A DNA stretch of 64,000 nucleotides. Origin: an uncultured Bacillota bacterium. GTDB taxonomy: Bacteria; Bacillota; Clostridia; Christensenellales; UBA1242. The notes under the pieces were generated by a model, which searched no databases, was not told the DNA's origin, and was given only the letters and a program-made list of their open reading frames with translations. The translations under genes and the position numbers were made by a program. Of this stretch, positions 7,514-50,783 are shown piece by piece; the first letter of the stretch is position 1, and each line of letters opens with the position of its first letter. The stretch is taken from assembly GCA_946499835.1 (NCBI GenBank), contig CAMMTJ010000002.1, positions 13,292-77,291 on the forward strand. The letters are read 5' to 3'.

Positions 7514-7582
7514 ATATTTATCATTTTGAATAAAAATATATTTATTCGACCATTGACAACATTCGACAACTTATTGTCACTA

Positions 7583-7611
7583 TTGACAAAGATTGAACTT
7601 AATGATATACT
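7583..7611 (+). promoter_or_regulatory. Sigma-70-type promoter, TTGACA-17-TATACT
   Basis: TTGACA at 7583-7588, a 17-nt spacer, TATACT at 7606-7611. GGGGGA and the ATG at 7631 follow. Confidence 0.65.
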
Positions 7612-7630
7612 ATCGGCAAATGGGGGATTT

Positions 7631-31459: not shown

Positions 31460-33814
31460 TTAAGCAATCCATGCTGTCCATTCGCTATTTGAAGTGATAT
31501 TGCTTGTGATATCCTCGCTCCATGATTGACCTATCCATGACAATCCTTTTGGAATAGGGCAACTGCCAGCGGCAGACAATACAAAGTCAGAAAAATCATT
31601 TCCGTAAAAATATTTCATGTCACCAGCAAACCAAAGGCAATTTGTGAAAGTGCCCTGATTTGTTTGATATGGAGAAATATCATTTTCAACAACTGCATAA
31701 CAATTTTCAACAATTCCAGAAGCTGAAATTTCTCCCACAAACATTCCTACGCTTTTTCCTGTGACGGTTGCATTTTCCAGTCCACAGTGTGAAAGTTTGA
31801 CAGAAAGAGTGCCATTTGCAATTTTTCCAACAATTCCACCGACAACTGCCTTTCCATATACATTTCCACTGTTTAAGCAAGAAAATATTGTTATGTCATA
31901 ATTTGCATTCACCATGCCAACTATGCCACCGACGCACTCTTCTCCTTTGACATATCCCCAGTTGAAGCAACCTTGAAGTGTAGCATTATTTTCAATAGAG
32001 CCAACAATTCCGCCAATATATTGATTTTGTCCATCTATTTTTCCAAAATTGCAGTTATTTTGAATGACTGAATTGGCTTGAGGATAACCAACAATCCCAG
32101 CCGAATGATACAATCCTCGCACTATACCGTAATTGTTGCAATCAGTGATTATTGCGTTGTTTGTTGAACCAACAATCCCACCAACATAATAATTTCCTTG
32201 CACACATGAATTTGTCAAGTTGATATTTGAAATAGTTGCTATATTGTCTTGATTTTCGCCACCAACAACGCCAAACAAACCTTGATAGTCATTCACTCTA
32301 CTTGTTGAACCTGGCGAGGTGTAAATTCCAGAAATAGTGCATTTTCCACCGTCGTAATGTCCTGAAAATGTGGCAGGATCTTGTGAGCCATCACGCTTTG
32401 TTTGCAGTCCGATTGGTTGCCAGTAATATTGTGCAAAATCTAGGTTTGCTGTTTGCTTAAAATATTTGTCTTCATAGAAATATATATCGTTGTCGGCAGA
32501 AGATGAGTTTTCATTTTTTGTATAAAGTGACCAACTTAAATATACAAGATCCCATTCTGATTGGATAAGATATGGATCTGTGGCAGAACCTGAACCTTTC
32601 CAGTTATGAGAATTGAAGTTTTGCCCAGCACCACTCCAAACTGCATCATCTATCCAAAAGGCATTGTTTTCTGGTGTTACAGAAGTGAAATAGATGATTA
32701 GAGTTATTTCTTTGGGTGGCATTTTGATTTTTATTCGTTCATTTGTGCTGTCTGCCATTTCAACTGATGGGTCTGAAAGAGAATAAGTGTATTCTGAATA
32801 GAAATTTTTTGTTTTTATATCATAAATTTCTATTATAGCGTCTGATGCAAGTCCATCCCAAAAGTCGTCAAGATTGTTGCCAACTTCTACGCCATCAACG
32901 CTCATAGAAAAGGAAATTTCTGATGCAGCACCATTATCAACTCCGTCAAGGGCATTGTTGACATCAAATATATATATTGCAGTATAGCCAGGATAGAGAG
33001 TTGCACCAGGGGTATAGGCATAATCGTTTACAAAATATCCATCAGCATCAAGCACTTTCACACCTGTTTTATCTGGCCCAGACCAAAAGCCATCCAAAAC
33101 ATAACCACTTTGTTGATAATCGCTTGGGTTAAGGGTTGTCTCTCTTGAAAGCCCACCAGCAAGTTCGGTGGCGACAGAGCCATTTGAAACACGGACAGCA
33201 TTTCCATTGATATAATACTGATAAACAAGCACAGCATCATAAAGCATATTTATGTCGTATGCGCCACTTCCTTGAATTGTTCCAAATGTGCTATCACGAT
33301 CAACTGTTTCCCCATATAAAAATTCGGTTTGGGTGGAATTGATGCCATAATCAGTGTTGCTATTTAACACATAAAATCCACTTGCATTTTTGGCAGACAC
33401 TCTGACTTGTCTGAGATAAACATTTGACATACTTCTTATTTCTACTCTGTAACGGATATCATAATAGTTGGTGTTTGTTCCTTGATGTTGACTTCCAGAG
33501 TATGTCACACCATTGCTATCACAAACAGCACCTTGGGCAGTTGTCATAAAACCATTATAATCGCCACCGATGAGAGAATAGCCACCAACAACCAAAACGA
33601 CGAATCCTAGTCTTGAATTGTCTTCAATTGGCGAGTAGACTTCTTCTCCTGAGCCATTTGAATATGGCGTAAATCTTGTGTATGAGTGACCAGTCCAATC
33701 AATTGCTGCATCTGTCCCTGTTGATGGGATAATAAAAACTATGCCAACCGAAGTTAACAACAAGACGCAAAGAATAATAAAAAATAGTAAAATCGGACGC
33801 TTTTTTGATATCAC
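31460..33814 (-). CDS. N-terminally anchored GLUG-repeat surface protein (784 aa from the GTG at 33814)
   Basis: The GTG at 33814 follows GGAGA; the track's ATG at 33916 lies in an A/T-rich region with no SD. TM span PILLFFIILCVLLLTSVGIVFII. 'GSGSATDPYLIQSEWDL' and 'FSGHYDGGKCTISGI' are followed by five (V/I)GGIVG...N.G GLUG-type repeats. Confidence 0.8.
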   Translation of the reverse strand: MISKKRPILLFFIILCVLLLTSVGIVFIIPSTGTDAAIDWTGHSYTRFTPYSNGSGEEVYSPIEDNSRLGFVVLVVGGYSLIGGDYNGFMTTAQGAVCDSNGVTYSGSQHQGTNTNYYDIRYRVEIRSMSNVYLRQVRVSAKNASGFYVLNSNTDYGINSTQTEFLYGETVDRDSTFGTIQGSGAYDINMLYDAVLVYQYYINGNAVRVSNGSVATELAGGLSRETTLNPSDYQQSGYVLDGFWSGPDKTGVKVLDADGYFVNDYAYTPGATLYPGYTAIYIFDVNNALDGVDNGAASEISFSMSVDGVEVGNNLDDFWDGLASDAIIEIYDIKTKNFYSEYTYSLSDPSVEMADSTNERIKIKMPPKEITLIIYFTSVTPENNAFWIDDAVWSGAGQNFNSHNWKGSGSATDPYLIQSEWDLVYLSWSLYTKNENSSSADNDIYFYEDKYFKQTANLDFAQYYWQPIGLQTKRDGSQDPATFSGHYDGGKCTISGIYTSPGSTSRVNDYQGLFGVVGGENQDNIATISNINLTNSCVQGNYYVGGIVGSTNNAIITDCNNYGIVRGLYHSAGIVGYPQANSVIQNNCNFGKIDGQNQYIGGIVGSIENNATLQGCFNWGYVKGEECVGGIVGMVNANYDITIFSCLNSGNVYGKAVVGGIVGKIANGTLSVKLSHCGLENATVTGKSVGMFVGEISASGIVENCYAVVENDISPYQTNQGTFTNCLWFAGDMKYFYGNDFSDFVLSAAGSCPIPKGLSWIGQSWSEDITSNITSNSEWTAWIA

Positions 33815-33994
33815 TTTTTTTTCTCCAATTGTATTATGTCTTATTATTTTTATATATATTATAATTAGTAACTTGCTTTTTTCAAAATGTTTTGAAGTGT
33901 TTAAGATTAGTTGCATATTAAAAAAATGCCAGCAAAACCAGCATTTTTTTAGATAAATATTATTTTTTTGATAACTTAGAAAAATTGAGATGTC

Positions 33995-35374
33995 TTAGTT
34001 AAATTTTATTCTCTCTGCCACATAAGAGATCAGGTTTGAGATTGGAACTCTAATTTGCTCCATACTATCTCTGTCACGAATTGTCACAGAGTTATTTTCA
34101 AGAGTGTCAAAGTCAATAGTTACACAGAAAGGTGTGCCGATTTCATCTTGACGGCGATAGCGTTTTCCAATTGAGCCAGCCTCGTCATAATCACACATAA
34201 ATTCTTTTGAGAGAATGCTGTAAACCTCTTTTGCTTTTTCTGACAAATTCTTTTGAAGTGGCAAGATTGCAACTTTGTATGGTGCAATTGCAGGGTGGAA
34301 GTGCATCACAACTCGTGTTTCGCCATTTTCAAGATTTTCTTCATCATATGCTTCGCAAAGAAGAGCAAGGGTCAATCTATCAGCACCGATTGAATATTCA
34401 ATAACATTTGGGATATATTTTTCATTTGTGTATGGGTCAAGGTAGAGCATGCTCTTTCCGCTGTATTCTTGGTGACGAGAAAGGTCATAATCACTTCTAT
34501 TGTGGATGCCGTTGAGTTCGTTCCAGCCCATAGGGAAGAGATATTGAATGTCGCAGGCTGCACGGGCATAATGTGCAAGTTTGTCATGGTCATGAAAACG
34601 CAAATGGTCTTTATCTATGCCAAGGTCAAGCACATAACGCATTGCCTTTTCTTTGTATTCATTGTAATATTTTTCATCATCACCATTTTTGCAGAACCAT
34701 TGATGTTCCATTTGCTCAAATTCGATTGTTCTGAAAATGAAGTTTCCAGGTGTGATTTCATTTCTAAACGCTTTGCCAACTTGTGCAATTCCAAAAGGCA
34801 CTTTTGCCCTGCAAGCGCGTTGAACATTGAGGAAATTGACAAATTCGCCTTGTGCTGTTTCTGGACGCAAATAAATTTTGTTTTGTCCTTCTTCTGTTAC
34901 ACCACGAGAAGTTTCAAACATAAGGTTGAATTGTCTTATTGCTGTCCAGTTGAAATTTCCACATTTTGGACAGCATACTTTGTGCTCCATAATGTAGTTT
35001 TGCATCTCTTCATTGCTCATAAGGTCAGGATTAACCTTGCCTTTTGAGTGTGCTTCAATGAGATTGTCTGCGCGGTGTCTTGTTTTGCAGTTTTTGCAGT
35101 CCATTTGAGGATCAGAGAAAGATGTTGTGTGTCCACTTGCTTCCCAAACTCTGCTGTTCATGAGTATGGCAGCATCAACACCATATGTGTTTGGATTTTC
35201 TTGCACAAATCTTTTCCACCAAGTGCGCTTTATATTGTTCTTAAACTCCACACCGACAGGGCCATAGTCCCAAGTGTTTCCCATTCCGCCATAAATTTCA
35301 CTTCCTGGGAAGATAATGCCTCTGTTTTTGCAGAGATTGACAATTTTGTCCATAGTTGCTTTGATTTCTTTCAT
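33995..35374 (-). CDS. glyQS: Glycine--tRNA ligase (dimeric alpha2 type)
   Basis: '[39 protein letters not shown]', class II motifs and 459 aa. It is preceded by a Gly-specific T-box leader. Confidence 0.93.
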
Positions 35375-35582: not shown

Positions 35583-37163
35583 CTATTTGCCATACTTTTC
35601 CACATATTCTTCATATGTTCCTGTGAAGTCGATCACATGATCTTCATCAACAATTTCAATAATTCTGTTTGCAACAGTTTCAATTATCTCTTGGTCGTGT
35701 GTTGAGAAGAGGAGGACGCCTTTATAGTTTTGCATACCTTTGTTGAGAGCAGTTATGCTTTCAAGGTCAAGGTGGTTTGTTGGCTCGTCCAAGATGAGCA
35801 GGTTTGATTGTTCAAGCATGATCTTTGCAAGCATACATCTCACGCGTTCACCACCAGAGATAACTTTTGCCATTTTCATGTTTTCTTCACCAGTGAAAAG
35901 CATTCTTCCAAGCCAACTTCTGATATATGTTTCATTTTGATCTTTTGAAAATTGTCTGAGCCAGTCCACAAGTGAAAGGTCGCAGTTTTCAAAATATGGG
36001 TTGTTGTTTTGTGGAAGAGATGAGATTTTGATTGTCTTTCCAACATGCACGCTTCCGCTGTCTGATTTTTCCTGTCCGATAATAATATTGAAAAGAGTGG
36101 TCAAAATTTGACTATTTTTTGCAAAAAATGCCACTTTTTGCCCTTTTTCTATGTTAAAGTTGAGATTTTTGAACATTCCTGCCTTTGAAAGTCCATCGAC
36201 TTTCAACACCTCTTTTCCAATTTCTTGCGTAAATTCAAAGTTGATGTATGGATATTTTCTTGAAGAAGGTTTAAGGTCTTCGATGGTCAATTTTTCAAGT
36301 TCTCTCTTTCTGCTTGTTGCCTGTCTTGATTTTGATGCGTTTGCTGAGAAGCGGGCAATAAATTCTTTAAGTTCCTTTGCGCGTTGTTCAGCCTTTTTGT
36401 TTTGATCCTTTTGCTGTCTTAAAATAAGTTGACTTGATTCATACCAGAAATCATAATTTCCAAGAAACATATTGATTTGTCCATAGTCCACATCGCAAAT
36501 GTGAGTGCAGACTTTGTTGAGAAAGTGTCTGTTGTGAGAAACGATAATGACAGTGTTTGGGAAATCAAGCAAAAAGTTTTCAAGCCAGCGCACAGTTTTG
36601 AAGTCGAGGTTGTTTGTTGGCTCGTCAAGCACCAAGATGTCAGGGTTGCCAAAAAGTGCTTGTGCAAGCAAAACTTTGACCTTAACTTTTGGATCAATCT
36701 CTGCCATCAAGGTATAATATTGATCTTCGCCAATGCCAAGATTTTGCAAAAGTGACTTTGCCTCAGATTCTGCTTCCCAGCCACCAAGTTCTGCAAATTC
36801 AGTTTCAAGTTCGCCAGCACGCACGCCATCTTCTTCTGTGAAATCTTCTTTTGCATAGAGGGCATCCTTTTCCTTTTGGATGTCCATAAGTCTTTTGTGT
36901 CCAAGAAGGACGGTGTCGAGCACTGTTTCGCTGTCATAGGCATTTTGGTTTTGTGCAAGCACGCTCATACGTTCACCAGGGGTAATAAAAACCTCACCGG
37001 TGTTAGGTTCAATTTCACCAGTCAAAATTTTCAAAAAGGTGGACTTTCCTGCTCCGTTTGCACCGATAATGCCATAGCAGTTGCCTTTTGTGAATTTCAA
37101 ATTCACATCTTTATAAAGTGTCCTTCCTCCAAAAGCAAGGGACACATTTGAAACTTGTATCAT
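35583..37163 (-). CDS. ABC-F family ATPase (two ABC domains, no TM domain; YbiT/EttA-like)
   Basis: 'GIIGANGAGKSTF', an 'LSGG'-type signature, a charged inter-domain linker and a second ABC module; 526 aa. Confidence 0.85.
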   Translation of the reverse strand: MIQVSNVSLAFGGRTLYKDVNLKFTKGNCYGIIGANGAGKSTFLKILTGEIEPNTGEVFITPGERMSVLAQNQNAYDSETVLDTVLLGHKRLMDIQKEKDALYAKEDFTEEDGVRAGELETEFAELGGWEAESEAKSLLQNLGIGEDQYYTLMAEIDPKVKVKVLLAQALFGNPDILVLDEPTNNLDFKTVRWLENFLLDFPNTVIIVSHNRHFLNKVCTHICDVDYGQINMFLGNYDFWYESSQLILRQQKDQNKKAEQRAKELKEFIARFSANASKSRQATSRKRELEKLTIEDLKPSSRKYPYINFEFTQEIGKEVLKVDGLSKAGMFKNLNFNIEKGQKVAFFAKNSQILTTLFNIIIGQEKSDSGSVHVGKTIKISSLPQNNNPYFENCDLSLVDWLRQFSKDQNETYIRSWLGRMLFTGEENMKMAKVISGGERVRCMLAKIMLEQSNLLILDEPTNHLDLESITALNKGMQNYKGVLLFSTHDQEIIETVANRIIEIVDEDHVIDFTGTYEEYVEKYGK

Positions 37164-37197
37164 TGTCTTTCTCCCAAATTTTTCCTAAGTCTTTGAT

Positions 37198-37226
37198 ATT
37201 ATATTAAAAATAAAATATAAAGTCAA
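37198..37226 (-). promoter_or_regulatory. Promoter, TTGACT-17-TATAAT
   Basis: Minus strand: TTGACT (37226-37221), a 17-nt spacer, TATAAT (37203-37198). It lies upstream of the ABC-F start. Confidence 0.7.
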
Positions 37227-37320
37227 TATAAAAATGCACCATAGGCAAAATTTGTATTATTTGAAAAAATAACAAAAAAATCAAAAATAAATAAAAATTA
37301 TCAAAAAAAACACAAAATTT

Positions 37321-37344
37321 TGCAATTTTTTATGCAATTTTTTA
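37321..37344. repeat. Tandem 12-bp repeat TGCAATTTTTTA x2 within a 425-bp extremely AT-rich intergenic region
   Basis: Exact copies at 37321-37332 and 37333-37344, followed by further T-tract units (TATTTTTAATATTTTTTATTTTTT). Confidence 0.85.
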
Positions 37345-37503
37345 TATTTTTAATATTTTTTATTTTTTCAAAAGATTTTTATGCAAATAAAAATAAATTG
37401 TTTTTATTTCAAAAGTTTTTCTTTTCCGCAAAATCAAACGGAAATAAATATTTTTGTTAATTATATTTATAATATAAATAAATTGACAATATTTGATTTT
37501 TAT

Positions 37504-37532
37504 TTGCTTTTTTCGGGATAAAAATCTATAAT
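37504..37532 (+). promoter_or_regulatory. Candidate promoter of the giant gene, TTGCTT-17-TATAAT
   Basis: TTGCTT at 37504-37509, a 17-nt spacer, TATAAT at 37527-37532, about 55 nt upstream of the ATG at 37589. Confidence 0.5.
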
Positions 37533-37588
37533 AAAATTGTTTAGTTTGACGTGCTTGATTTTCACTTTGAAAAAAAGGAGTGCTTGTT

Positions 37589-40500
37589 ATGGCAAAAGAT
37601 AAAGAAAAAGTAAAAGTTGCTGGCACAGGGAAAAAGTGGGCAGTGTGGAAAACGGTGCTCGTTGTTATCTCCTCTGTCATTTTTGTTGCTGGCGTAACTC
37701 TTCTTGGAATATACCTTGCAGGAGGACTTCGCAATCCTGTCACACCACCAGATGACATTGCTTTTGTTGTTGACGATGATTTATATAGCGCTGACAATGC
37801 TCAGTTTGAAGTGACTGAGGATTTTGAACTTGTCATAACTTCTTCCACAGAACAAGTCACTGAAAGACAAGTGCGTTTGTCATTCACTGGTTCGACAACC
37901 ACGAATCCATCCACAGGAACAATTTCTGATGGAGTGATCACTGTTCCTCAAATTGTCAATATTGGAGAGCCTTTCCAAGTTACTCTCAACATGACACGCT
38001 ATCAAGAACTTGGTGGACAAAACTGGATCGCAGGTGGAATTTCAACTCTTATTGCCACATCTATGTCAAATGATCAAGCAGACCCAACAAGCGTGAAAAT
38101 TGCAGTTGATGTCCCTGTTTATGATATTGAAATTGAACTTTATGACGAATACGGAAATCAAATTTCACAAGTGACAGAACTTGAAAGATTTTATCCTCGT
38201 GCAAAATTCTTGCCAGAAAAGAGTAGGTATCGTTACAGCGATGACGCAATCGTTGCAGAGGATGGTGTCACTGTCGAGAGAAGGACAAAAAATGTTTACT
38301 TTGAAGGACAGAGTTCTGACAATATTGTCTTTTTCTTCAATGATGGAGATCCTTACTTTGAAGCAGGTGAACTTTCAACTGAAAACAATTTCTCAATAGT
38401 TGGTTACACCTTTATCCATGCCGATGATCAAGCAAACACTTTAACAGAACTTGAAACTTTATATCAAGGGGAGCAACTTTACAACAATATCATCACTGCA
38501 CTCGGTGATGCAAATATCGGAAAGTCAAACACAGGCACTTTTGAAATTGTTCAAGCAAGCATAAAATCATTCACTGTTGGCAGATCATCAATTTCTGTTA
38601 CAGCAGGTATGACAAGCAGAATTGCAGTCGCATCTTCTCAAAATGCTGACGCATCACTTGGCGCATCCATCATCTCAACAGACGACGAAAGCCTTGAAGG
38701 CATGCTCAGAAATGTGGCAATCAGATTTACAAGAGTTGAAGGATCTGGAATTGTTGAAGCAAACGATGCTCTCAATGTTCGTGGCGGAGAAGAGGTTGTC
38801 ATTGATGGCAACACTTACATAAAAGTCAACGACGATGTGCTTGACTACAATTATTCATATCTTGATATTTCGCCAATGGTCGCTGGCACTTACAATATGG
38901 AAGTGGTTCTTCTTATGAGAGATGGATCTGACGGATATCGTCTCTTTGAAGTTGACGGAGAGGCTGTTATCAACTCAATCATACTTAATGTTAAACAAAA
39001 CACAGAAGCGCAACTGTCTTGGTCTAATGGTGGCACAGACATTACCATCCCACTCCAATATCAAAATGGAGTTGTTCAACCAGCACTCTATGACTTGTCA
39101 GGTTTTGGTATCGTGCCAGAAGGCAATGCATATCAAACAGTGGTATATTTTGCATCATTTGAAAACTCAGGCGGTATAAGTGCTGAGGATGTCTTGGTGT
39201 CATGGCAGAGTGGCAGAGAAGGAGATTATCTTGTTGGTGCAGATATCAGATGGTTGTATCCTTTCCAAGGATCAAGTTTCTCTGTTGATGGTGATGGCGA
39301 GTTTGAACTCTATTTCGCAACAGTCCGCACAATCAATGGACAAATTCAATATAACGAAGACGGCACTTATCAAACAGTGCAATTTGTGTCTGATCCAATC
39401 ACAGTCAGAGTGGAAAGATCTTTGCATGAGGACTCAGTCACAAATCTCACAACCACGCTCAATGGCAATGGTTTTGACCATGCTGGGGGAATTTATGTTC
39501 AAGAAGGCTCAACCGCTTCAATTGACTTGACTTTTGCAGTTGACGTAAACTCTTATGAAACATTTGCAGAAGTCTTCAATCAAAACATGCTTGAATTGAG
39601 AGTTTTCAGCGTGGGTGGACAAGATATTTCAACCAGCTTCACAATCAGCAAAGGGACTCTTACACCAGGTGAGGAGAAAGACGCCAATGGCACTCTTTCA
39701 TATAACCTTGCAATCAACCCATCACTTGGACTTGGAATAAACGAATTTTTGACAATCGGAACTGTTGAGTTGACTGACAGAGATAGTGGGCTTGTTTGGA
39801 GCATGCCAGTAGTTACTGCTGGCGAGGACGGCAGACAAATCACTCTTTACTCACCACAACCAGTTTCAATCACTCTTGAAAGCAATGACATTGAATTGAA
39901 TGAGCAAATCAGCGTTGTTCAAGCATTGACAAATGACGGTTTTACCACCACAATCACGCAGGGTGGAGAAAGCATTGCAAGCAGCATAGATGAATTGATT
40001 GGAAAATTGTCAGTTCAAGTGATCGACCAAATCGGGCAAACGTCAACTCTTGGAAGTTGGATTTGGGCAACAGATAATGAAAGTGCAGTGACAGTCAACG
40101 GACAATCTTTCTCTTTCAGAAGCACAAATGGACAGGAGCCTGTTTCTGCAAACATCTGGGTGACATATACAAATTATTCAAACATCACAAGCGAGGCAAG
40201 ACTTAATCTTTCAATCAGTTCAACTGGTGTTGCTGCAATTACTTATGACAACACACAAATACTTAAAGACGCGCAACCTCCTTTGGTTGACTGGACGGAC
40301 GGTCTTGGAGAAGTTTCACTTTCAAAATATGGTGCAAAAGGTAAAACTATCAGACTTGCAGATTTGGTGAAACTATATTTAGATGAAGACAAGGGTCAAG
40401 AATATACAACACCAAAATTCCGATTTAACGCAAACGAACTTTATCTTCTAGAGGATGATGTGGTTTCATTGTTTGGTGCGACAAAGGGAATAATCAGTTT

Positions 40501-43500
40501 AACATTGGAAGAAGGAGAAGTGACATCTGATGATGCAAATGAAATTTGTTCAGTGCTGACAAGTTCTTATGTGACAAGCCTTACATTCAAAAACAATTTT
40601 GGCACATCTCAAACATTGAGATTTGAAATTGTTGATGAGGGATTGACAGGTGCGGTTGACATTGACTTAAATTTGCAAATCTTGGCAAACAGCACGCTTC
40701 AAACAGCAGTCAATTCTGTTGAGGCATATGCTGCCACAAACATTGTTTTTAGAGATTTCTCAATAACAAACAACAATGATACATCTTCAACAACACTGAC
40801 TGACTATTTGAAAGAATTGTATAAAGATAGATATATGTATATCGTTCAAGACAATTCTGGAACTGGAAACATTTACACGATTTCAAAAGATTCTGCTGGA
40901 GCAGTTGGGTCGGTAAATGATGACGGCACAATCACATTCTATGATTTCTGGGATGAAGAAACAAGAGAGTTTGCACTCAGGCTTTATCTTGACGGCATAA
41001 ATGTGACAAACACATTTGCACCAGTTGCAACGATCAACTTCACAATTTCAAGAAACGTGAGGGTGACATATACTGGAACTGCTTACCAGATTTTGGGCGA
41101 CAACAACGCTATTGGGAACTATATCAAAGTAGAAAGAGAAGTATATAGCGAGACACCACTTCTAGATGCAAGTTACGCCTTTGCAAGTGGCGCTCCACTT
41201 GAAATAACAGATGGTACAATTTCTCAATCACAAACATATTTCTTTGATTACAATGAGATCACAAAGACTTGCTCTTTGACTGTAAGTGTTGGTGGAAGTG
41301 TTATTGCAACATTTGACAATTTTGCCTATACTCTTGGCGAGGGGACTTATGGAAGTATTGCAAAGGAGTTTACAGGCACAATAGAGGTAGAAAAATACCA
41401 AGCAGGGACAATTCAAACTGTGGCAAATGAAGAGGGAGAAGAGGTGCAATATCTCTATCTTACAACAGGAAACTGGTCATTTGGTTCAGATGTTAATGGA
41501 ATTGGTGATATATTCCCTGGTTATAATGTTCTATTAAGAGCACGTTTTAAAATTGAAGACGTCCCAGATGGGGTCAATTCAGCATATTTATCAGTCAACA
41601 CAAACTACACAATGACTGAAAATTGGCAGGCAAACTTCCCAAACAGAACTTCAGTTATGACAGGGCTTGACAATCCAAATGTATATATTCAGTTTGAGGT
41701 TGTTTCAAGCAACAACCTCGTTGTTGCAAGAATAGTTATGCCTCTCATTGTTTCAAACTATGGAAAAGTCTTCGGCGTTTTTGATAATTATCTTTCAAAT
41801 GATGACTCTCTTACAGATCATACAAAAGATCACAAAGATATGTCACTTGCAAACATTTTGAGCGATGCAAACACCTTGATTGAAAATAAAATTTACACTG
41901 AGGTTTATGCAGGACAAAGAGTGGTTGTTGCAAGACGTATGGGGCTTAATGAGATGTTTGACGAAAACAAAGCCACAGGATTATATTATCTTCCAGATGA
42001 CGCACAGGTGAGCGCAAGGGTAACTCTTATCACCGACAATGAAGGCTATCGTGAAGGGCTTTTGAGACGAGTATCTTCTGGCTCTGGACTTGTTGATTTC
42101 GAATACAATTCAGCAAGCGGTGAGTATAGTGTTTCACTCAATCACTTGGAGTCATCAGAAAGTGAAGTTTATGTTGCAGTGCAATTTGCTTTACGCTATG
42201 CAGATGACGAACAATATTTCACTTATGTTTTGAAAGTTTTGCCAACGGTTGATGTAAAAGAGGGCGTTTATGCTTACAACACACCAACAGAATATTTGAC
42301 ACCAGACGATAACAACCAAATTGAAGTTGATTTGGCACAAGAGTTTGGCAACACCACTTTGCATAATGGTGAGACCAGATTTGATTATGATTTTGAAGAT
42401 GGTGCTCAAAAAGAAGAGGGTGTTCAAAAGGTTGACCTTAAATATAGTTACAGCGTTGAAAGTTTGACACTTGACAACGATCAAGTTTTGACAGAAGAGA
42501 GCGATTGGAGCAGATATATCTCATTTGCAGTTGATGAAAATGAGATCATGCGAATCGTGGTTCAAGATCTTGGAAGTGGACAACCACTTAGACTTCAAAT
42601 TGCAAGAGTATATGATGGTGGCAGTGACGGACTTGCTGTCATTGGTGACAACGGGGCATTTAGACAAACTTACAACTTCACAATCAATGGCTCAGTATCA
42701 TATAGATTGAATTACGGAACGCCAAATTCTGGAAATTTGTCTTCAAGTGGCAATGACGCAACTTGGGACATCAACTCAATCACAAACGGTTGGGAAGAAG
42801 GATCTTACACAACAGTTGCAGGCACTCTTGTTGGCGGAGACAATCCAACATATTATCTTTCAAATACCGGAGTAGATTATTATTACTTTGCATCAACGGA
42901 TGTGACTTATGACAGTTCTGGCGCTGAGCGTGGTCAACTTGGCAAGGAATTAAAAATTCTTGCAACAGCAAAAAAGATTCAAATAACAATAAATGGTGAG
43001 CAAGTGGAGTGTTTCCAAGTCCCAGAAACAGGAACTTATGTAAAAGTCTCAGATGGTGAGAAAAGAAATTCAATCACAAACGTTCAACTGCTTTACTTCA
43101 CAAAAGATGCGACAATTTATAGTAACACAAATCAAGACTCAACAATAGGAACAATTCCTGCTGGTGAACATAAAGCATATGTGGAAGATACTGATAACGA
43201 TACGGATGACAATACCGTTGCTGGCTATTATAAACTTGCCGAAGGACAATATGTTGAAAAGACAACAGCCGTTGTGGTGGCAGGCAAAGAGTTTGACAAA
43301 GATGTGACAACTGTTTATCAAGATGCACAAGGTGCACAACCAACAGACCCAGTCCTGAAACTTTCAGAAAACTATATTGTTCTTTGCCAATACAGATTGC
43401 CTATCACACTATTCAGTGCCAGTGGCTCGACCAGCACTCCAATCACTGGCGTGCTTCAAGCAAACGCATGGGCAAGCAGTGGAGAACTCACAGATATTGT

Positions 43501-46500
43501 CGCTGATGTGATTTATGACGGCTCAAATTCAATTTTGACAATAACACCACTTCAATATCTTGGCTCAGATCAAACTTTCTATATCTCTTTCTATACAGGT
43601 TATGGATATATCGGTGGCTTGACTGTCAATGTTGCCGGAAGTGCAAGCGTAACTATGAAAGAAGATCCTGATTTGATTGCCGGCACAACACCATCTATCA
43701 AAAATTTGATTGCAAAAGTTGTATTTAGCGGTGTGGATGTAACAAAGAAAAATTACACTGTTTCTGAGGTAACAATAAATTCTGTGACCACCACAAATAA
43801 AGATGGTGAAGTGACATACGATAAGGATGAGCAGGATTACATAACTTGGGATCCTGCCAACACTGAAACGAGCACTGCTGACACTTTGACACTGCGAACA
43901 TCAGTCAGAGACTATACTGCTGACTTGACAATTACTTTGAATTATGAAGGTCAAACATACACATTCAATCACACAATTGAAGTGAAATCAAACATTTCAC
44001 AAGTAAAAAATGACAATGTTGTTGGTTTGACAAAGGCAACAGCCCAGACAATCTCAGTTGGAGATGTTGTTGCAGGCACACCGAAAGAAATTGACCAGCC
44101 AGAGTTGTTTACACTTAAAAATAAAAACAATGCTACCTTTACATACTCATGGGAATCAAACAACACAGGCGTGATTGAAGATGGTGACAATAAAACAAAT
44201 GATGGCGCAGTTACCTTCACACCGAAAAATGTTGCAAATGCTGGACAAGATGTCACATTGATGGTGGAAGTGACCATGACTGACGGTGAACTCGAAAACA
44301 TATTCTATGTCAGATTGCAAATCCATGTCGTTTGTGCAGGAAAGGTGACTGTGACTTATCCTGTGATTGGAGAAACCAAACTTCAAGCAGAATATCTTGA
44401 AAGCACCAAAGACTCTCCCGCAGAATTTGCCAGTGCACAATCATTCTTCTTTGGAAGCAAAGCCGTGTTTGCAGGGAACATCCGTGTTCAACTTGCAGAT
44501 GTTTCATTGGACGAAAGCGGAGAGCAAACATCAACGCCAGTGACTCAACCTATTGCTGGTGAAGATCCTAAGCCATCAATCACAATCATAGGTGCACAAA
44601 ACATCGATGTTATGCAAGGTGGGACACATAAAAATGCTTCAACGGGCAACAACGAAATCGCTTTGAGTAGCGATCTCAAATTTGTGCTTGGCAACTGGAA
44701 TGATGAAACAAGAAAAAACACCGATACTGGTGAAGAGTCATATGTGATATTTAGAATCGAATATAGAGGCTACACAGCAGAATATACCGTCTATGTTCAA
44801 GAAACTGTTTACGGACTCAGTTTCAATGGTGCAACAAACAATATGACAGCAGGTGGAGATGGCACAGAGGTTGAAAACTTCTATGTTGAAAATCTGCTTT
44901 CAGATACAAAAATTTTCGCAAACAATCGTATGCTGAAATATACTGTCCGAGAAGGTGCACCAACAGGAACATATTATTTAGGCTTTACCACTGCTGAGAA
45001 TCAAGAGACACCTGAGAAATATCTTTCATTCGTTATCACAGAGAGTGACCGCGGACAGACAAAGTATATCGAACTTGGCAAACCATATAAGTCATTTACA
45101 GGAATTTACAGCAGGACAGGAGAAACAGGGCCTTACACTCCGTTGCCAAACGACTCTTACTTTGATGGCACTCCAACTTTGACCGCTCGTGTCACATTCA
45201 CATACACTGCAGGTGAAAACAGATATGAAGTGCCTTATGCCACATTCTCAGAGCAGATCAAATTTACTGCTGGCAATCAATCAGAACAAACACTCGCAGA
45301 TTATAGAATTTCACAAAAAACAAACAATCTTGGCAACACACAAACTTTGAAAGATTTCATATTTGTTTTGGGAAATGGACAAATTGCAACTGACGGAGCA
45401 AACAAAGAGTTTGCAAACACCTATTCTTATACACTTGCACTCGATGTTGGGGCAACAACTTATGCACATGACGGAAATTTCCCAATCGAAGAAATTGATG
45501 CAAGGGATGAAATCAACCTTGTTGAAACGGTTGGGCTGATCAGACAAAGCACTGGGGAAGCCTATTCAAGAGAAATGTTCAATGAGAATAGGACTGAAAC
45601 GAGTGGCAATTACCTCTCATTCTCAATGGTGGATCCAACCAATCCAACTGGGAATGATACAAGCATCTTGCTTGGACTTTACAACTATATGAACAACGCA
45701 AGCAAAACAACAGTTGACGAAGATGTTCAAAACGCGTTTGCAATTGCAGCAACAGGCAACTACAACTACATGGCTTACTCACCAGTAAATGAAGAAAATG
45801 GCAAAGATGAGACTGCATATGACATTCGTGCATGGGGACAAGGTGCGCCTATCGGTGGCACAATAGTTGTTGGAAAATTGACTTACAATGTTAAGACAAG
45901 TGAAACTGAACCGTTCACACAAGACTTCTATGTTGTTTTCAGAATCTTGCCAGCATACACAATCTCAGTCAATGGCTCAGCAATGACAGTAGAAGATACA
46001 ACTTATCTTTCAAACATCACCAATCCATACGAGGCGACAATCACGGAATCAAGTGATGAATATAGCATTGACTTGACAGCAACAAGTTCACCTCTTGTGG
46101 TTGGTTATGAACATGAGACCACAGCATCAAATCTTCTTAATCAATTTGATAAAGAAGTCACAACAGGAGAACGCGTCAATGGCGTGGAATACAACAATAA
46201 GTTGAATGCAAAGAATAAGAATGTGTTCCCATCTGGGACTGATAATGATAATGAACATTTCTGGAGTAATAGTTCTGACACAACTTACAAATGTTCTCGA
46301 GGTGCTGGCACAACTCTTGCTCCAGCACAAGTTCATTTTGCTGATCAGAAATATAGGATCAAGATGACTGATGTCTATGGATATTATTTCTATTTCTATT
46401 TCACTTTGAAGGCAACAGGCTCAGCACCAACACTTCAGACGACAAACATCACTTTGACTGAGGGAGACACATTTGACTTCACAACATCAAGCACGGTGAT

Positions 46501-48181
46501 TTCAATCACAGGGGCAACTGGTGAAGAAGCAGATCAAACACTTACTATGCGCTCTGCATCACATAGCGCACCAACAACACAAATTAACAATGCAGTGACA
46601 ATCGAACTGAGTGGATTCTCATTCTGGTTCTTTGATGATTATTATACAAAACCAGAAAGCAATGGTCGTCCTGCTTATCTGCAAGAATCTGATAGCGCTT
46701 ATATCGGAGCAGAAATAGATGGTCAATCTGGTAGCCACTATGAAATTCCTACAGAATATAAAACTTACCTTGAACCAAGCACCTATAACAATATAGCAGT
46801 GAGCGAGATTACTTTGCTTGGTCCAAACGGTGAGGAGTTGGGATGTGAAGTAGATTTGGCTGAATCTGCCGGAGGAAATCGTCTTAAAGTGGGCGTTGGC
46901 GAAATACTTGAACACGCAACAGGATCTGCTGCCCAACTTGACACAAGTGGTGGATTGACTTATACCGTTCCAACCATAGCCGGATCAGCACCTTGGGAAG
47001 GAAGTGGAAGTATGAGTGCCACTATGGCTGTAACATTCATGTATGATCCAGATGGTACAAGCGGGACAACAGATGATAATGAAGAATATTGTGTTGTTGA
47101 CATTCCAATCACTCTCAAACGCAAGACACAAATCACATCACCAAACTCATATGTTCGTGATGGTGAGGCGTTTACTCTTACAGAGTATATCGGCTTGCAA
47201 AAAGGCACATCAAATATTACACCTACCTTCATTGATGACACGCTGGAAGTTTACGTTCCTGCAAACTCAGGAGTGACACTGGAAATCTATATTACAGATT
47301 CAGAGGGTAATAATCGTGCACCTGAAGAAGGATATGCATCAATAACAACCAAAACATACCATACAAGACAACAAACATATTATTATTCAATTTCTCAAAC
47401 GGTCGGAAGAAATCTTCAAGCGGGCGATTTGATCTATGTCAGAGCAACCAGTGCATCAAGTGCTACTGTTAATGCAGGGAATGCAAATAGTCCATTTGAG
47501 GGCTATGCGATTGGATATTCTGCTGGTGTCAATGAAGGGAATAATAATAAAACAATTTTAGGTGGAGGCTTAAATGTATGGCTTGACAGCAATCCTACTG
47601 AAGATCCACAAGGACCAACCTTCACGGCAGTCACAATTAAACAAGACAAAATCGGCATACCAGATACCGTTCACTTCACAAATGGAAATTACGCAGAAGT
47701 TCAACAATATTATGTTATCAATGCAGAAATTGGTGGAACTCAGGTTAGTTATCAATACACAAAAACTTACCGCGTGACTTGGGCATATAGCAATGTAACA
47801 GTCAATGACATCGGCAGAGTGGGTGCTACCAAACAGGATGACGATAGCTATATAATTTCTTGGAAGAATATATTAAATAAACTTGGCTTCTCATATCTTG
47901 GTGAAGGAAATGTTACGAAACCTATTAGTGATAATAAAACTGTATCTGCAAAGCAATTCAGGCTCGAAGTGACTGAGGCTGGATCTGGTAGTGCAAGTGT
48001 TGATGAAGATGGTAATATCACAACTTCTACTAATTTCAATCAACAAAACGAATATATCACTTTGGTGTTCTATCGAAAAGCGTCAGGTGCAGATGGATTG
48101 TTTGGAACAGCGGACGATGTGGCAGCAACGCAACCATTCTTGACATTTAGATTCCAAATATACCAAGAATCAACAATTTAG
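37589..48181 (+). CDS. Giant (3530 aa) N-terminally anchored surface protein, no recognisable family
   Basis: Uninterrupted 10.6-kb ORF. The ATG at 37589 lies 8 nt after AAGGAG. N-terminus: 'MAKDKEKVKVAGTGKK' then a TM span 'WAVWKTVLVVISSVIFVAGVTLLGIYLAGGL'. The rest is T/S/N/G/V/Y/D/E-rich and Cys-poor, with no obvious tandem repeats, no LPXTG and no C-terminal TM. Confidence 0.85.
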   Translation: MAKDKEKVKVAGTGKKWAVWKTVLVVISSVIFVAGVTLLGIYLAGGLRNPVTPPDDIAFVVDDDLYSADNAQFEVTEDFELVITSSTEQVTERQVRLSFTGSTTTNPSTGTISDGVITVPQIVNIGEPFQVTLNMTRYQELGGQNWIAGGISTLIATSMSNDQADPTSVKIAVDVPVYDIEIELYDEYGNQISQVTELERFYPRAKFLPEKSRYRYSDDAIVAEDGVTVERRTKNVYFEGQSSDNIVFFFNDGDPYFEAGELSTENNFSIVGYTFIHADDQANTLTELETLYQGEQLYNNIITALGDANIGKSNTGTFEIVQASIKSFTVGRSSISVTAGMTSRIAVASSQNADASLGASIISTDDESLEGMLRNVAIRFTRVEGSGIVEANDALNVRGGEEVVIDGNTYIKVNDDVLDYNYSYLDISPMVAGTYNMEVVLLMRDGSDGYRLFEVDGEAVINSIILNVKQNTEAQLSWSNGGTDITIPLQYQNGVVQPALYDLSGFGIVPEGNAYQTVVYFASFENSGGISAEDVLVSWQSGREGDYLVGADIRWLYPFQGSSFSVDGDGEFELYFATVRTINGQIQYNEDGTYQTVQFVSDPITVRVERSLHEDSVTNLTTTLNGNGFDHAGGIYVQEGSTASIDLTFAVDVNSYETFAEVFNQNMLELRVFSVGGQDISTSFTISKGTLTPGEEKDANGTLSYNLAINPSLGLGINEFLTIGTVELTDRDSGLVWSMPVVTAGEDGRQITLYSPQPVSITLESNDIELNEQISVVQALTNDGFTTTITQGGESIASSIDELIGKLSVQVIDQIGQTSTLGSWIWATDNESAVTVNGQSFSFRSTNGQEPVSANIWVTYTNYSNITSEARLNLSISSTGVAAITYDNTQILKDAQPPLVDWTDGLGEVSLSKYGAKGKTIRLADLVKLYLDEDKGQEYTTPKFRFNANELYLLEDDVVSLFGATKGIISLTLEEGEVTSDDANEICSVLTSSYVTSLTFKNNFGTSQTLRFEIVDEGLTGAVDIDLNLQILANSTLQTAVNSVEAYAATNIVFRDFSITNNNDTSSTTLTDYLKELYKDRYMYIVQDNSGTGNIYTISKDSAGAVGSVNDDGTITFYDFWDEETREFALRLYLDGINVTNTFAPVATINFTISRNVRVTYTGTAYQILGDNNAIGNYIKVEREVYSETPLLDASYAFASGAPLEITDGTISQSQTYFFDYNEITKTCSLTVSVGGSVIATFDNFAYTLGEGTYGSIAKEFTGTIEVEKYQAGTIQTVANEEGEEVQYLYLTTGNWSFGSDVNGIGDIFPGYNVLLRARFKIEDVPDGVNSAYLSVNTNYTMTENWQANFPNRTSVMTGLDNPNVYIQFEVVSSNNLVVARIVMPLIVSNYGKVFGVFDNYLSNDDSLTDHTKDHKDMSLANILSDANTLIENKIYTEVYAGQRVVVARRMGLNEMFDENKATGLYYLPDDAQVSARVTLITDNEGYREGLLRRVSSGSGLVDFEYNSASGEYSVSLNHLESSESEVYVAVQFALRYADDEQYFTYVLKVLPTVDVKEGVYAYNTPTEYLTPDDNNQIEVDLAQEFGNTTLHNGETRFDYDFEDGAQKEEGVQKVDLKYSYSVESLTLDNDQVLTEESDWSRYISFAVDENEIMRIVVQDLGSGQPLRLQIARVYDGGSDGLAVIGDNGAFRQTYNFTINGSVSYRLNYGTPNSGNLSSSGNDATWDINSITNGWEEGSYTTVAGTLVGGDNPTYYLSNTGVDYYYFASTDVTYDSSGAERGQLGKELKILATAKKIQITINGEQVECFQVPETGTYVKVSDGEKRNSITNVQLLYFTKDATIYSNTNQDSTIGTIPAGEHKAYVEDTDNDTDDNTVAGYYKLAEGQYVEKTTAVVVAGKEFDKDVTTVYQDAQGAQPTDPVLKLSENYIVLCQYRLPITLFSASGSTSTPITGVLQANAWASSGELTDIVADVIYDGSNSILTITPLQYLGSDQTFYISFYTGYGYIGGLTVNVAGSASVTMKEDPDLIAGTTPSIKNLIAKVVFSGVDVTKKNYTVSEVTINSVTTTNKDGEVTYDKDEQDYITWDPANTETSTADTLTLRTSVRDYTADLTITLNYEGQTYTFNHTIEVKSNISQVKNDNVVGLTKATAQTISVGDVVAGTPKEIDQPELFTLKNKNNATFTYSWESNNTGVIEDGDNKTNDGAVTFTPKNVANAGQDVTLMVEVTMTDGELENIFYVRLQIHVVCAGKVTVTYPVIGETKLQAEYLESTKDSPAEFASAQSFFFGSKAVFAGNIRVQLADVSLDESGEQTSTPVTQPIAGEDPKPSITIIGAQNIDVMQGGTHKNASTGNNEIALSSDLKFVLGNWNDETRKNTDTGEESYVIFRIEYRGYTAEYTVYVQETVYGLSFNGATNNMTAGGDGTEVENFYVENLLSDTKIFANNRMLKYTVREGAPTGTYYLGFTTAENQETPEKYLSFVITESDRGQTKYIELGKPYKSFTGIYSRTGETGPYTPLPNDSYFDGTPTLTARVTFTYTAGENRYEVPYATFSEQIKFTAGNQSEQTLADYRISQKTNNLGNTQTLKDFIFVLGNGQIATDGANKEFANTYSYTLALDVGATTYAHDGNFPIEEIDARDEINLVETVGLIRQSTGEAYSREMFNENRTETSGNYLSFSMVDPTNPTGNDTSILLGLYNYMNNASKTTVDEDVQNAFAIAATGNYNYMAYSPVNEENGKDETAYDIRAWGQGAPIGGTIVVGKLTYNVKTSETEPFTQDFYVVFRILPAYTISVNGSAMTVEDTTYLSNITNPYEATITESSDEYSIDLTATSSPLVVGYEHETTASNLLNQFDKEVTTGERVNGVEYNNKLNAKNKNVFPSGTDNDNEHFWSNSSDTTYKCSRGAGTTLAPAQVHFADQKYRIKMTDVYGYYFYFYFTLKATGSAPTLQTTNITLTEGDTFDFTTSSTVISITGATGEEADQTLTMRSASHSAPTTQINNAVTIELSGFSFWFFDDYYTKPESNGRPAYLQESDSAYIGAEIDGQSGSHYEIPTEYKTYLEPSTYNNIAVSEITLLGPNGEELGCEVDLAESAGGNRLKVGVGEILEHATGSAAQLDTSGGLTYTVPTIAGSAPWEGSGSMSATMAVTFMYDPDGTSGTTDDNEEYCVVDIPITLKRKTQITSPNSYVRDGEAFTLTEYIGLQKGTSNITPTFIDDTLEVYVPANSGVTLEIYITDSEGNNRAPEEGYASITTKTYHTRQQTYYYSISQTVGRNLQAGDLIYVRATSASSATVNAGNANSPFEGYAIGYSAGVNEGNNNKTILGGGLNVWLDSNPTEDPQGPTFTAVTIKQDKIGIPDTVHFTNGNYAEVQQYYVINAEIGGTQVSYQYTKTYRVTWAYSNVTVNDIGRVGATKQDDDSYIISWKNILNKLGFSYLGEGNVTKPISDNKTVSAKQFRLEVTEAGSGSASVDEDGNITTSTNFNQQNEYITLVFYRKASGADGLFGTADDVAATQPFLTFRFQIYQESTI

Positions 48182-48194
48182 GTGAGGTGAGCGC

Positions 48195-49646
48195 ATGAAC
48201 TGGTTTACCACACTTATCACTGTCACCGCTTGCATCAACTTTCTTCTGCTGATTATTATGGTTTTCCTCGAAAGAAGAAAATTGCAAACGATTATTGCAT
48301 GGCTGACAGTTTTGACCTTTCTTCCTATCTTCGGCTTCTTGCTTTACATCATATTTGGAAGCGGACTCAGCATCAGAACGAGGCGAATGATAAGGAAGAA
48401 GGCCATTTCTGAAAGCGATATCTTGAAAAATATTGAAAACATTGATTCTCTTGCAAATGCCAAAGTTGAAGGCATTGCAAGAGATGAGATGCCGTCAATA
48501 AATTTATGTATGAAATATAGTTCATATCCATTGCCGGGAAATGATATTCAAATCTATTGCAATGGACTTGAAAAAATGCAAGCACTCAAAGAAGATATCA
48601 TGAATGCAAAACATTCAATCAATCTTGAATACTATATTTTTGACGATGATTTGACTGGGAAAGATTTTATGAATCTTCTATGCCAAAAAGCAAGAGAGGG
48701 TGTTGAAGTCAGACTGATATATGATTCAATTGGCTCTCGAAAAGCACCCAGACGCTTTTTCAATAAGGTGAAAAAAGCAGGGGGACAGGTGGCTGAGTTT
48801 TTTCCACCTTTTATGCATATAAGGCTTATCAACCTCAAACTCAATTATCGCAATCACAGAAAAATTGCTGTGATTGATGGGCGTATCGGCTATACAGGTG
48901 GCATCAATATTCGTGATGACCACATGGGGCTTGACAAAAAACTGAGGCCTTGGCGTGACACCCATATTCGCATTGAGGGAAGTGGGGTGTATGCTCTTCA
49001 AAATATTTTTCTTGATGATTGGCGTTATGCAAAGAAGGAAAATTGCAAGCCTATTGAATATATCGAAAAGGGATATTTTCCTGCTCCTAAGATTTGTGGC
49101 GATGCACTTGTTCAAGTGATTGCTTCTGGGCCAGACAGCAGTGTGCAAAAAATCAAAGAAGCGTATGTAAAACTTATCACAAACGCAAAGAAGAGGGTGT
49201 ATATTCAAACTCCATACTTCATTCCAGATGATGTCTTTTTCTCAGCACTTCGTATTGCTGTTGCCAGCGGTGTTGATGTCAGAATTATGGTGCCAAGAAA
49301 ACCAGACAAGAGGACTGTCTATCTTGCAACTCTTTCATACCTAAAAGAGATGGCAGATATGGGGATACGAGTGTTTCTCTATGATGGATTTTTGCATAGC
49401 AAAACGCTCATGATTGACGACAACAAAGTCTCAATTGGCACTTGCAATATGGACAACAGATCTTTTGGGCTAAACTTTGAAAACACGGCAATTATCTATT
49501 CCACAAAAATAAACGCTCAGCACAGTCAGATCTTTGAAAAAGATATGACAAATTCGCTGGAAGTTGGCAAGGAATATTTTGCTAAAAAAAGGTGGCTTAC
49601 AAAAATTCTTCAAGCAATAATGAGATTGCTCTCAGCATTGTTTTGA
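48195..49646 (+). CDS. cls: Cardiolipin synthase (PLD superfamily, two HKD motifs)
   Basis: Two N-terminal TM spans. HKD motifs 'HRKIAVIDGRIGYTGGINIRD' and 'LHSKTLMIDDNKVSIGTCNMDNRS'. It starts 13 nt after the giant gene's stop. Confidence 0.9.
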   Translation: MNWFTTLITVTACINFLLLIIMVFLERRKLQTIIAWLTVLTFLPIFGFLLYIIFGSGLSIRTRRMIRKKAISESDILKNIENIDSLANAKVEGIARDEMPSINLCMKYSSYPLPGNDIQIYCNGLEKMQALKEDIMNAKHSINLEYYIFDDDLTGKDFMNLLCQKAREGVEVRLIYDSIGSRKAPRRFFNKVKKAGGQVAEFFPPFMHIRLINLKLNYRNHRKIAVIDGRIGYTGGINIRDDHMGLDKKLRPWRDTHIRIEGSGVYALQNIFLDDWRYAKKENCKPIEYIEKGYFPAPKICGDALVQVIASGPDSSVQKIKEAYVKLITNAKKRVYIQTPYFIPDDVFFSALRIAVASGVDVRIMVPRKPDKRTVYLATLSYLKEMADMGIRVFLYDGFLHSKTLMIDDNKVSIGTCNMDNRSFGLNFENTAIIYSTKINAQHSQIFEKDMTNSLEVGKEYFAKKRWLTKILQAIMRLLSALF

Positions 49647-50262: not shown

Positions 50263-50339
50263 GCGTCGCTAGCTCAGCTGGATAGAGCGTTGGTCTACGG
50301 AACCAAAGGTCAGGGGTTCGAATCCCTTGCGACGCACCA
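50263..50339 (+). tRNA. tRNA-Arg (anticodon ACG), CCA encoded
   Basis: Manual cloverleaf. Acceptor GCGTCGC/GCGACGC. D-stem GCTC/GAGC. Anticodon stem TTGGT/ACCAA with loop CTACGGA. Variable loop AGGTC. T-arm AGGGG-TTCGAAT-CCCTT. Discriminator A plus CCA; 77 nt. Confidence 0.92.
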
Positions 50340-50761: not shown

Positions 50762-50783
50762 AAAAAAAAGTGCAATCAGCACT
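50762..50783 (-). terminator. Intrinsic terminator after the glycosyltransferase gene
   Basis: Stem AGTGC (50769-50773) / GCACT (50779-50783), with a T-run on the minus strand (the plus-strand A-run at 50762-50769). Confidence 0.55.

Follow-up and report, generated by a model that had tools for sequence, protein, structure and literature searches.

Several kinds of giant multi-domain proteins have been described that can be compared with the one considered here. The giant immunoglobulin (Ig)-like surface proteins and adhesins of bacteria, such as SiiE, the RTX-adhesin extenders and the 'periscope' stalks, are very large, acidic and cysteine-poor extracellular chains of β-sandwiches. Classical accessory adhesins usually vary in repeat number and presence. 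In eukaryotes, NUP210 is a long single-pass protein with many Ig-like domains, fixed in their order and devoid of detectable sequence repetition, whose anchor is C-terminal. The surface-layer (S-layer) proteins Sap and EA1 of Bacillus anthracis, likewise acidic but free of cysteine, contain assembly domains made of multiple β-sandwiches. The present work deals with a gene of 3530 codons (the giant gene) located at 37589..48181 (+) of a 64-kb stretch (the window) of contig CAMMTJ010000002.1, from the assembly GCA_946499835.1 of an uncultured Clostridia bacterium. This gene belongs to an unnamed, fast-evolving family that occupies a fixed chromosomal spot in uncultured gut Clostridia. Its product is probably (with a rough probability of 60%) a core envelope protein of these bacteria, consisting of a membrane-rooted Ig-chain that would constitute an acidic surface fibre or stalk.

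What is new is this family of giant Ig-chain envelope proteins with its unique domain order; the kind of protein is known from bacterial Ig-like surface giants. The giant differs from the Big-array adhesins in that no Big or other Pfam hidden Markov model (HMM) reaches its threshold and the modules are not near-identical, in that an N-terminal membrane span is present instead of an LPXTG, type 1 secretion system (T1SS) or outer-membrane anchor, and in that it is encoded by a syntenic core gene beside cls (cardiolipin synthase) and not by an island gene. The Aeromonas RTX-adhesin extender and SraP are among its structural matches, and presumably a stalk or fibre role like theirs fits the giant. 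Very long proteins have also been found in metagenomes. Part of a survey of giant genes describes Omnitrophota proteins of more than 30,000 amino acids (aa), which have many transmembrane regions and whose domains are for the most part divergent SecA DEAD helicases (10.1101/2023.11.21.568195), and the Clostridia examples in that part are built of RCC1 and other repeats (10.1101/2023.11.21.568195). As far as described there, giants of the Omnitrophota type share with the present family a metagenomic origin, a great length, a scarcity of annotation and an association with the envelope (10.1101/2023.11.21.568195). However, the members of the present family measure 3.1-4.9 thousand aa, have a single span and lack repeats.

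Relatives of the giant are numerous. In an exhaustive HMMER search, in which an N-terminal profile was compared with 1.84 billion cluster representatives, they were found in 200 clusters at E ≤ 1e-3 and in 156 at E ≤ 1e-30. Among the 150 matches listed, about 120 are full-length (3119-4895 aa), and all those listed align to the profile from, or close to, their own N-terminus. An earlier description of this DNA made from its letters alone (the sequence-only reading) had called the giant an orphan, a claim that does not survive these 200 clusters and their strict synteny. A word-index protein search returned merely four short fragments, two with aa 1-1200 as the query and two with a 15-sequence N-terminal profile. 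This kind of search misses full-length giants, and it is unsafe to declare a very long protein an orphan on its results alone.

When one genome for each species was scanned with a pattern, 15 loci were found in metagenome-assembled genomes (MAGs) of uncultured Clostridia, labelled as Christensenella sp., Christensenellaceae, Eubacteriales or Clostridia. The names of these MAGs (MGBC, UMGS and metawrap bins) point to gut metagenomes. Homology detected by tblastn is colinear and in the same frame across the whole 3530 aa. For instance, the locus L004 covers aa 17-3521 in one segment with 27.7% identity. An intact, single, colinear open reading frame (ORF) of 3201-3868 aa is present in 10 of the 10 loci with enough DNA, and the five cut loci reach contig ends without a stop codon. 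An alignment of 118 members is colinear as well, with conserved columns throughout the chain except at aa ~1720-1950, where an insertion is common to the window protein and P0005, the relative closest to it, and to no other member. This segment (query aa 1700-1960) showed no similarity to other family members besides P0005 or to the rest of the giant. The family is defined by a basic head, a span ending in LGVYLxGGF, a colinear ectodomain of more than 3000 aa and a locus adjacent to an ABC-F gene, all of which were found. No source attached a family name to the relatives, and literature searches found no description of the giant family.

The giant gene is a single open frame of about 10.6 kb from ATG to stop. 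The ORF listing also gives a version with a GTG start (37580..48181, +, 3533 aa). Since this GTG sits within the Shine-Dalgarno sequence, the ATG at 37589 lies 8 nucleotides (nt) after it and the closest relative also begins with MAKDKEK, the ATG is taken as the correct start. The uninterrupted frame, the good Shine-Dalgarno sequence and the very AT-rich region preceding the gene were all pointed out by the sequence-only reading and were borne out, the GC content being 17.6% in this spacer, 40% in the giant gene and 37.7% in the 64-kb window. The promoter that it proposed for the gene fared less well: a consensus promoter scan found no strong site on the + strand close to the giant gene, and there is a weak candidate by eye, TTGCTT-17-TATAAT at 37504-37532, whose -35 box matches in 3 of 6 positions. 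The product has a calculated mass of 386 kDa and an isoelectric point of 4.26. Its computed composition (T 11.0, G 8.3, V 8.0, S 8.0, N 7.0 and Y 5.8%; 470 D+E vs 218 K+R; exactly 8 Cys) agrees with the acidic, T/S/N/G/V/Y-rich protein with about eight Cys described before. The gene and its product can be divided as follows.

37164..37588 (+): AT-rich spacer from the ABC-F gene to the giant gene, 425 bp, 17.6% GC; presumed promoter region.
37574..37580 (+): Shine-Dalgarno sequence AAAGGAG, read directly, with an 8-nt spacer to the ATG at 37589.
37589..37645 (+): aa 1-19, Lys-rich head, predicted to be cytoplasmic from the sequence and from family conservation, closing with the conserved KKWAVWKT interface motif.
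37646..37726 (+): aa ~20-46, single hydrophobic span, read as a signal-anchor and closing with the conserved LGVYLxGGF.
37721..41320 (+): aa 45-1244, about ten successive predicted Ig-like β-sandwich modules, some with helical inserts (AlphaFold2, Foldseek).
41321..44578 (+): aa 1245-2330, colinear and conserved in the family, presumably β-sandwich (alignment, weak profile-profile links).
42746..43438 (+): aa ~1720-1950, lineage-specific insertion of ~230 aa.
44096..44329 (+): aa 2170-2247, sub-threshold Ig_VWA7 match, 20.9 bits vs a 27-bit cut-off; the only Pfam signal.
44579..48178 (+): aa 2331-3530, further predicted β-sandwich chain with few short helices (AlphaFold2, Foldseek); the fastest-evolving half.

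A Kyte-Doolittle scan of the giant revealed one span (aa 16-48, score 2.72) and nothing above 1.6 elsewhere. Each of the 123 full-length members that were examined has an N-terminal hydrophobic span and none has a C-terminal hydrophobic anchor, in support of the purely N-terminal anchoring proposed by the sequence-only reading. The basic head, scored only in the 37 of these 123 members that bear WxxW, has a net charge of +3 to +13. The basic head, a W-K/Q-T interface, the span of 24-27 residues and the LGVYLxGGF motif are conserved across the family. In a protein whose identity is otherwise ~30%, such conservation speaks in favour of a type II signal-anchor that is retained. The giant would be inserted by means of this uncleaved signal-anchor with an N-in/C-out topology, as suggested by the positive-inside head and the length of the span.

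The fold was predicted with AlphaFold2 and family alignments for two tiles of 1200 aa, whose mean predicted local distance difference test (pLDDT) and predicted template modelling (pTM) scores were:

aa 45-1244: 37 sequences in the alignment, mean pLDDT 87.1, pTM 0.44.
aa 2331-3530: 24 sequences in the alignment, mean pLDDT 76.5, pTM 0.55.

Both tiles are almost all β-strand with few short helices, and the second one includes a low-confidence loop (aa 3087-3122). The figure of about ten modules of ~115 aa per tile is a reading of DSSP strings, not of coordinates. According to these models, the two modelled parts of the giant are a chain of Ig-like β-sandwiches. In the region between them, the modules at ~1510-1600, 2000-2046, 2099-2174 and 2205-2302 are weakly linked, by profile-profile comparison, with one another and with the modelled β modules.

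Comparison of the models with the PDB by Foldseek (E ≤ 1e-3) gave 173 matches for aa 45-1244 and 95 for aa 2331-3530, with identities of 7-12%. The top matches were NUP210 (E 1.3e-22), titin I65-70, protocadherins, the GhpA neck, Sap and EA1, the MG domains of alpha-2-macroglobulin/C3 and the RTX-adhesin extender; desmogleins, the ciliary central-apparatus Ig/ASH chains, SGBP-B and SraP were also matched. The Foldseek viral library provided Ig-array tail and decoration proteins (8-13% identity). These matches, at 7-13% identity, are read as architectural resemblance between the models and other Ig chains and not as evidence of homology. For instance, NUP210 and the ciliary Ig/ASH chains, which gave the best matches (7r5k_10, E 1.3e-22, and 9hcj_10), are eukaryotic and are only analogous in architecture, with 8-9% identity and template modelling scores (TM-scores) of ~0.1. 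The assembly domains of Sap and EA1 were matched at E 1e-9 and 2.5e-7. However, the giant differs from both proteins in that it has no SLH domain, is ~4-5 times longer and possesses an N-terminal membrane span.

Searches for known domains were negative. In 21 members (the window protein, 10 close and 10 distant or long relatives; ~80,000 residues), nothing was found above threshold in Pfam; no Big_1, Big_2 or Big_3 HMM reached its gathering score, and there were no SLH, CWB2 or other wall-binding domains. The stretch at ~44000-44340, proposed as Big_2-like by the sequence-only reading, corresponds to the sub-threshold Ig_VWA7 match and not to Big_2. The window protein had no matches in NCBIfam, PHROGs or PADLOC, nor in a PDB sequence search carried out with the single sequence, with an 11-sequence full-length profile or with a 16-sequence N-terminal profile. 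A motif scan of it found no LPXTG (searched as LPxT[GASN]), GLUG, C.EQ thioester or GGxGxD RTX motif, in agreement with the previous impression that LPXTG, GLUG and catalytic signatures are lacking.

With respect to repeats, self-BLASTP at E ≤ 10 returned the identity match alone, and hhalign self-comparison found no tile pair at 90% probability or more, either among 1540 pairs of 11-sequence profiles or among 1830 pairs of 61-sequence profiles. The best self-match, ~85% (83-85% between sets) over 30 columns, joins aa 1528-1557 with aa 2759-2793. At the level of sequence the giant thus appears genuinely non-repetitive, as had been judged by eye. The related statement that it is mostly unique stands for the sequence but not for the fold, since both modelled thirds are predicted as tandem Ig-like β-sandwiches; an ordinary array of Ig modules is found structurally only, the modules not being near-identical.

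Several known designs were considered and rejected on these grounds. An LPXTG sortase-anchored protein is not supported, as the window giant has no LPxT[GASN] and the 123 members have no C-terminal hydrophobic segment. An RTX/T1SS adhesin lacks support as well, since there is no GG.G.D motif and an N-terminal hydrophobic export signal is found instead. Anchoring in the manner of S-layer proteins was discarded in view of the absence of SLH/CWB2 Pfam matches in the 21 members, and a repeat-array stalk of the 'periscope' type because neither self-BLASTP nor hhalign detected near-identical tandem modules.

The giant gene is flanked by the following genes.

33995-35374 (-): class II aminoacyl-tRNA synthetase (aaRS) with tRNA-synt_2b and HGTP_anticodon domains, 459 aa.
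35583..37163 (-): ABC-F ATPase gene, divergent; the upstream neighbour in every relative with the flank available.
48195..49646 (+): cls, cardiolipin synthase with PLDc_N and two PLD domains, 13 nt past the stop of the giant.

The gene order kept in the relatives is penicillin-binding protein (PBP) gene, two small ORFs, aaRS (-), ABC-F (-), giant and cls. Adjacency to ABC-F holds even in the distant members P0085 (4717 aa) and P0125 (4895 aa). In most relatives the distance from the stop of the giant to the start of cls ranges from -4 to ~+90 nt, and no terminator was found in the 13-nt gap of the window. The short gaps and the lack of a terminator make co-transcription likely, and both genes are probably operon partners, judging from their arrangement.

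Other features of this neighbourhood can be mentioned. A GlyRS_ins_1 match is present in the L020 and L021 counterparts of the synthetase, which is therefore probably a GlyRS rather than a HisRS. Downstream of cls there is a tRNA-Arg(ACG) at 50263-50339 (+), and the first terminator-like hairpin on the + strand past giant and cls is located beyond it, at 50769-50783. An Rfam scan of the window detected a tRNA only and no leader RNA. Further housekeeping genes of the window encode a GT4 glycosyltransferase, AspRS, a PASTA-containing PBP, MraW, NrdD and UvrAB.

The giant evolves much faster than its neighbours. Between genomes, identity is 84-90% for ABC-F, 71-89% for aaRS, 65-74% for cls and 27-33% for the giant. 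Nonsynonymous (dN) and synonymous (dS) substitution rates were estimated for the window and the contig of P0005 (L023), which are 71% identical at the amino-acid level. The values for the giant were dN 0.205, dS 0.667 and dN/dS 0.31, whereas the adjacent cls, with a similar dS, had a dN/dS of 0.044. These ratios indicate that the giant is under purifying selection, ~seven-fold relaxed relative to cls. The ratio is 0.12 at aa 1-250 and 0.3-0.47 across most of the distal half. The first ~250 aa of the region 45-1244 are also the most conserved part of the protein in the family (45-49% identity). From these figures, the end predicted to be membrane-proximal is the most constrained part of the giant.

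It is unlikely in the extreme that the gene is a spurious, decaying or misassembled ORF, and for the window copy this possibility can be regarded as refuted. It could be invoked because the L001 ortholog has an in-frame double stop and those of L002 and L018 break within the gene. However, the frame is open in all other loci covering those positions, the dN/dS of 0.31 rises clearly from the N- to the C-terminal end and the AlphaFold2 models are confident. In addition, L001 has only 3.9x coverage, L002 is chimeric and L018 belongs to the same study as L002. The homology of L002 ends abruptly at nt ~2667 (window 40217) and is followed by a SusD-like gene of Bacteroidota type, for which reason this scaffold is considered chimeric. 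Apart from these three loci, none is interrupted. Frameshifted or fragmented orthologs, which the sequence-only reading named as a sign of decay, are thus not the rule: the ORF is intact in all adequately covered relatives and dN/dS is below 1.

The features described so far can be brought together in the following way. The Lys-rich head would remain in the cytoplasm and the 24-27-residue span would act as a type II signal-anchor, so that Sec would export the remaining ~3480 residues while the N-terminus is kept in the membrane. The exported part is predicted to fold as ~25-30 successive Ig-like β-sandwich modules, each with its own sequence and in an order conserved family-wide. The resulting acidic fibre or stalk, probably longer than 100 nm if extended, would traverse the wall and display its distal modules on the surface of the cell, where they could participate in adhesion, contact between cells or spacing. 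The root of this structure would be formed by the conserved proximal modules, and its exposed, interacting part by the fast-evolving distal ones. Over its distal two thirds the giant evolves at several times the rate of the housekeeping neighbours, as expected when an exposed surface faces pressure from the host or from phages. The giant would probably be co-transcribed with the cardiolipin synthase gene. A surface fibre is the most likely role predicted for the giant, and adhesion or spacing appears to be the most economical function for its architecture.

Some observations weigh against this interpretation. Where the span ends on the outer side, a conserved A-G-G is a possible signal-peptidase site, in which case the protein would be released. 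A core gene that is strictly conserved in single copy and whose product keeps its domain order suits a structural scaffold better than a classical accessory adhesin. With pTM values of only 0.44 and 0.55, the models are compatible with either an extended or a compact inter-domain geometry, and the modelled fold covers aa 45-1244 and 2331-3530. In one distant member, P0125 (L021/L022), cls is not downstream of the giant. The ortholog of L001 (3.9x coverage) is split by an in-frame TAA-Leu-TAG at 5059-5067, past which homology resumes in the same frame; this split may reflect an error in sequencing, a nonsense allele or fission of the gene. Finally, L018, which is 96% identical to the window, loses homology at ~2593 (window nt 38312) and continues with HTH_17/HTH_3 genes resembling a mobile element. 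L018 and L002 come from one European Nucleotide Archive (ENA) study, and the break in L018 may stem from a chimera or from a genuine insertion.

The alternative that deserves most attention, although it is considered unlikely, is that the giant is a core envelope scaffold or ruler and not an adhesin, its unique Ig modules building a wall-spanning tether, coat or ring in the manner of NUP210 or hydin; the superstructure could possibly be organised at cardiolipin-rich membrane domains. It has to be taken seriously as a rival: this core gene occurs once in every relative, always at the same locus, and the order of domains in its product is conserved over 118 members. NUP210 and the ciliary central-apparatus Ig/ASH-array proteins as best structural matches, the strong constraint on the membrane-proximal region and the tight adjacency of cls, which sometimes overlaps the stop of the giant, are also in line with a scaffold. 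However, the Foldseek matches are generic to any Ig chain (7-13% identity, TM-score 0.1-0.3), the rapid divergence (27-33% identity) and the variable length (3119-4895 aa) argue against a precise ruler, and the adjacency of cls is absent in L021. A bolder form of this idea, to which rather little weight is given, sees the giant as a clade-defining scaffold of ~30 non-interchangeable Ig modules, single-copy and membrane-rooted beside a translationally coupled cls, which would form a defined superstructure across the wall or on the cell surface as the bacterial counterpart of NUP210/hydin, and would not be a simple adhesin.

An improbable alternative is a secreted protein, in which the span would be a long signal peptide of the Gram-positive type, cut after A-G-G, and the released chain would form an S-layer-like lattice, a sheath or a matrix. 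The small-residue AGG motif at the end of the span, the Foldseek matches to the assembly domains of Sap and EA1 and to an archaeal S-layer, and the acidic, Cys-poor composition typical of S-layer proteins are compatible with it. However, the 21 members have no SLH, CWB2 or other wall-binding domain, and the S-layer matches are no better than those to other Ig chains. The span has the length of a transmembrane helix (24-27 residues), and the head and span are among the best conserved parts of a ~30%-identical protein, which is unexpected for a discarded leader. An alpha-2-macroglobulin-like protease trap, or another enzyme-bearing giant, is very improbable and has been largely refuted. Bacterial alpha-2-macroglobulins are membrane-tethered, and the chains of MG-type β-sandwiches in alpha-2-macroglobulin, C3/C5, CD109 and TEP1 were matched by Foldseek, but the giant is more than twice as long as alpha-2-macroglobulin and shows neither the C.EQ thioester motif nor an A2M Pfam match. 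The two modelled thirds are without the large helical thioester domain, and no catalytic family was matched in Pfam, NCBIfam or PDB. The membrane-rooted surface fibre is retained as the preferred interpretation.

The sequence-only reading had also gathered the large genes of the window into a wider lineage-specific surface architecture. This view is not supported: the giant is unrelated to the other large window proteins by BLASTP, the GLUG gene is absent from the relatives and the product of ORF 1-6411 shows no anchor as far as it is visible. The GLUG-motif protein (31460-33916, -, 818 aa) has an N-terminal span and is absent from syntenic relatives. Since in these the second small ORF abuts the aaRS gene, the GLUG gene is regarded as an insertion specific to the lineage of the window. 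ORF 1-6411 (+), which is cut by the start of the window, encodes at least 2136 aa, and neither a Pfam match nor a hydrophobic span was detected in what is visible of it. The 979-aa product of 23421-26360 (+) starts with a four-span CvpA (colicin V production) domain of ~190 aa, followed by ~800 aa without Pfam match. The products of 15431-17389 (-, 652 aa) and 7526-8419 (+, 297 aa) have no Pfam match and no hydrophobic span.

The giant gene takes up ~10.6 kb per genome and is intact in every adequately covered relative. Defining the family would provide an entry of the Pfam type and, for an uncultured gut lineage, a marker of synteny (ABC-F, giant, cls). On the predicted fold, bacteria can make a giant surface chain out of Ig modules that are each unique and keep a fixed order, and not out of amplified repeats, and such a unique-module chain bears on the evolution and folding of giant surface proteins. 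In Christensenellales-like gut bacteria, the giant would probably be a dominant surface antigen, a receptor for phages or an adhesin.

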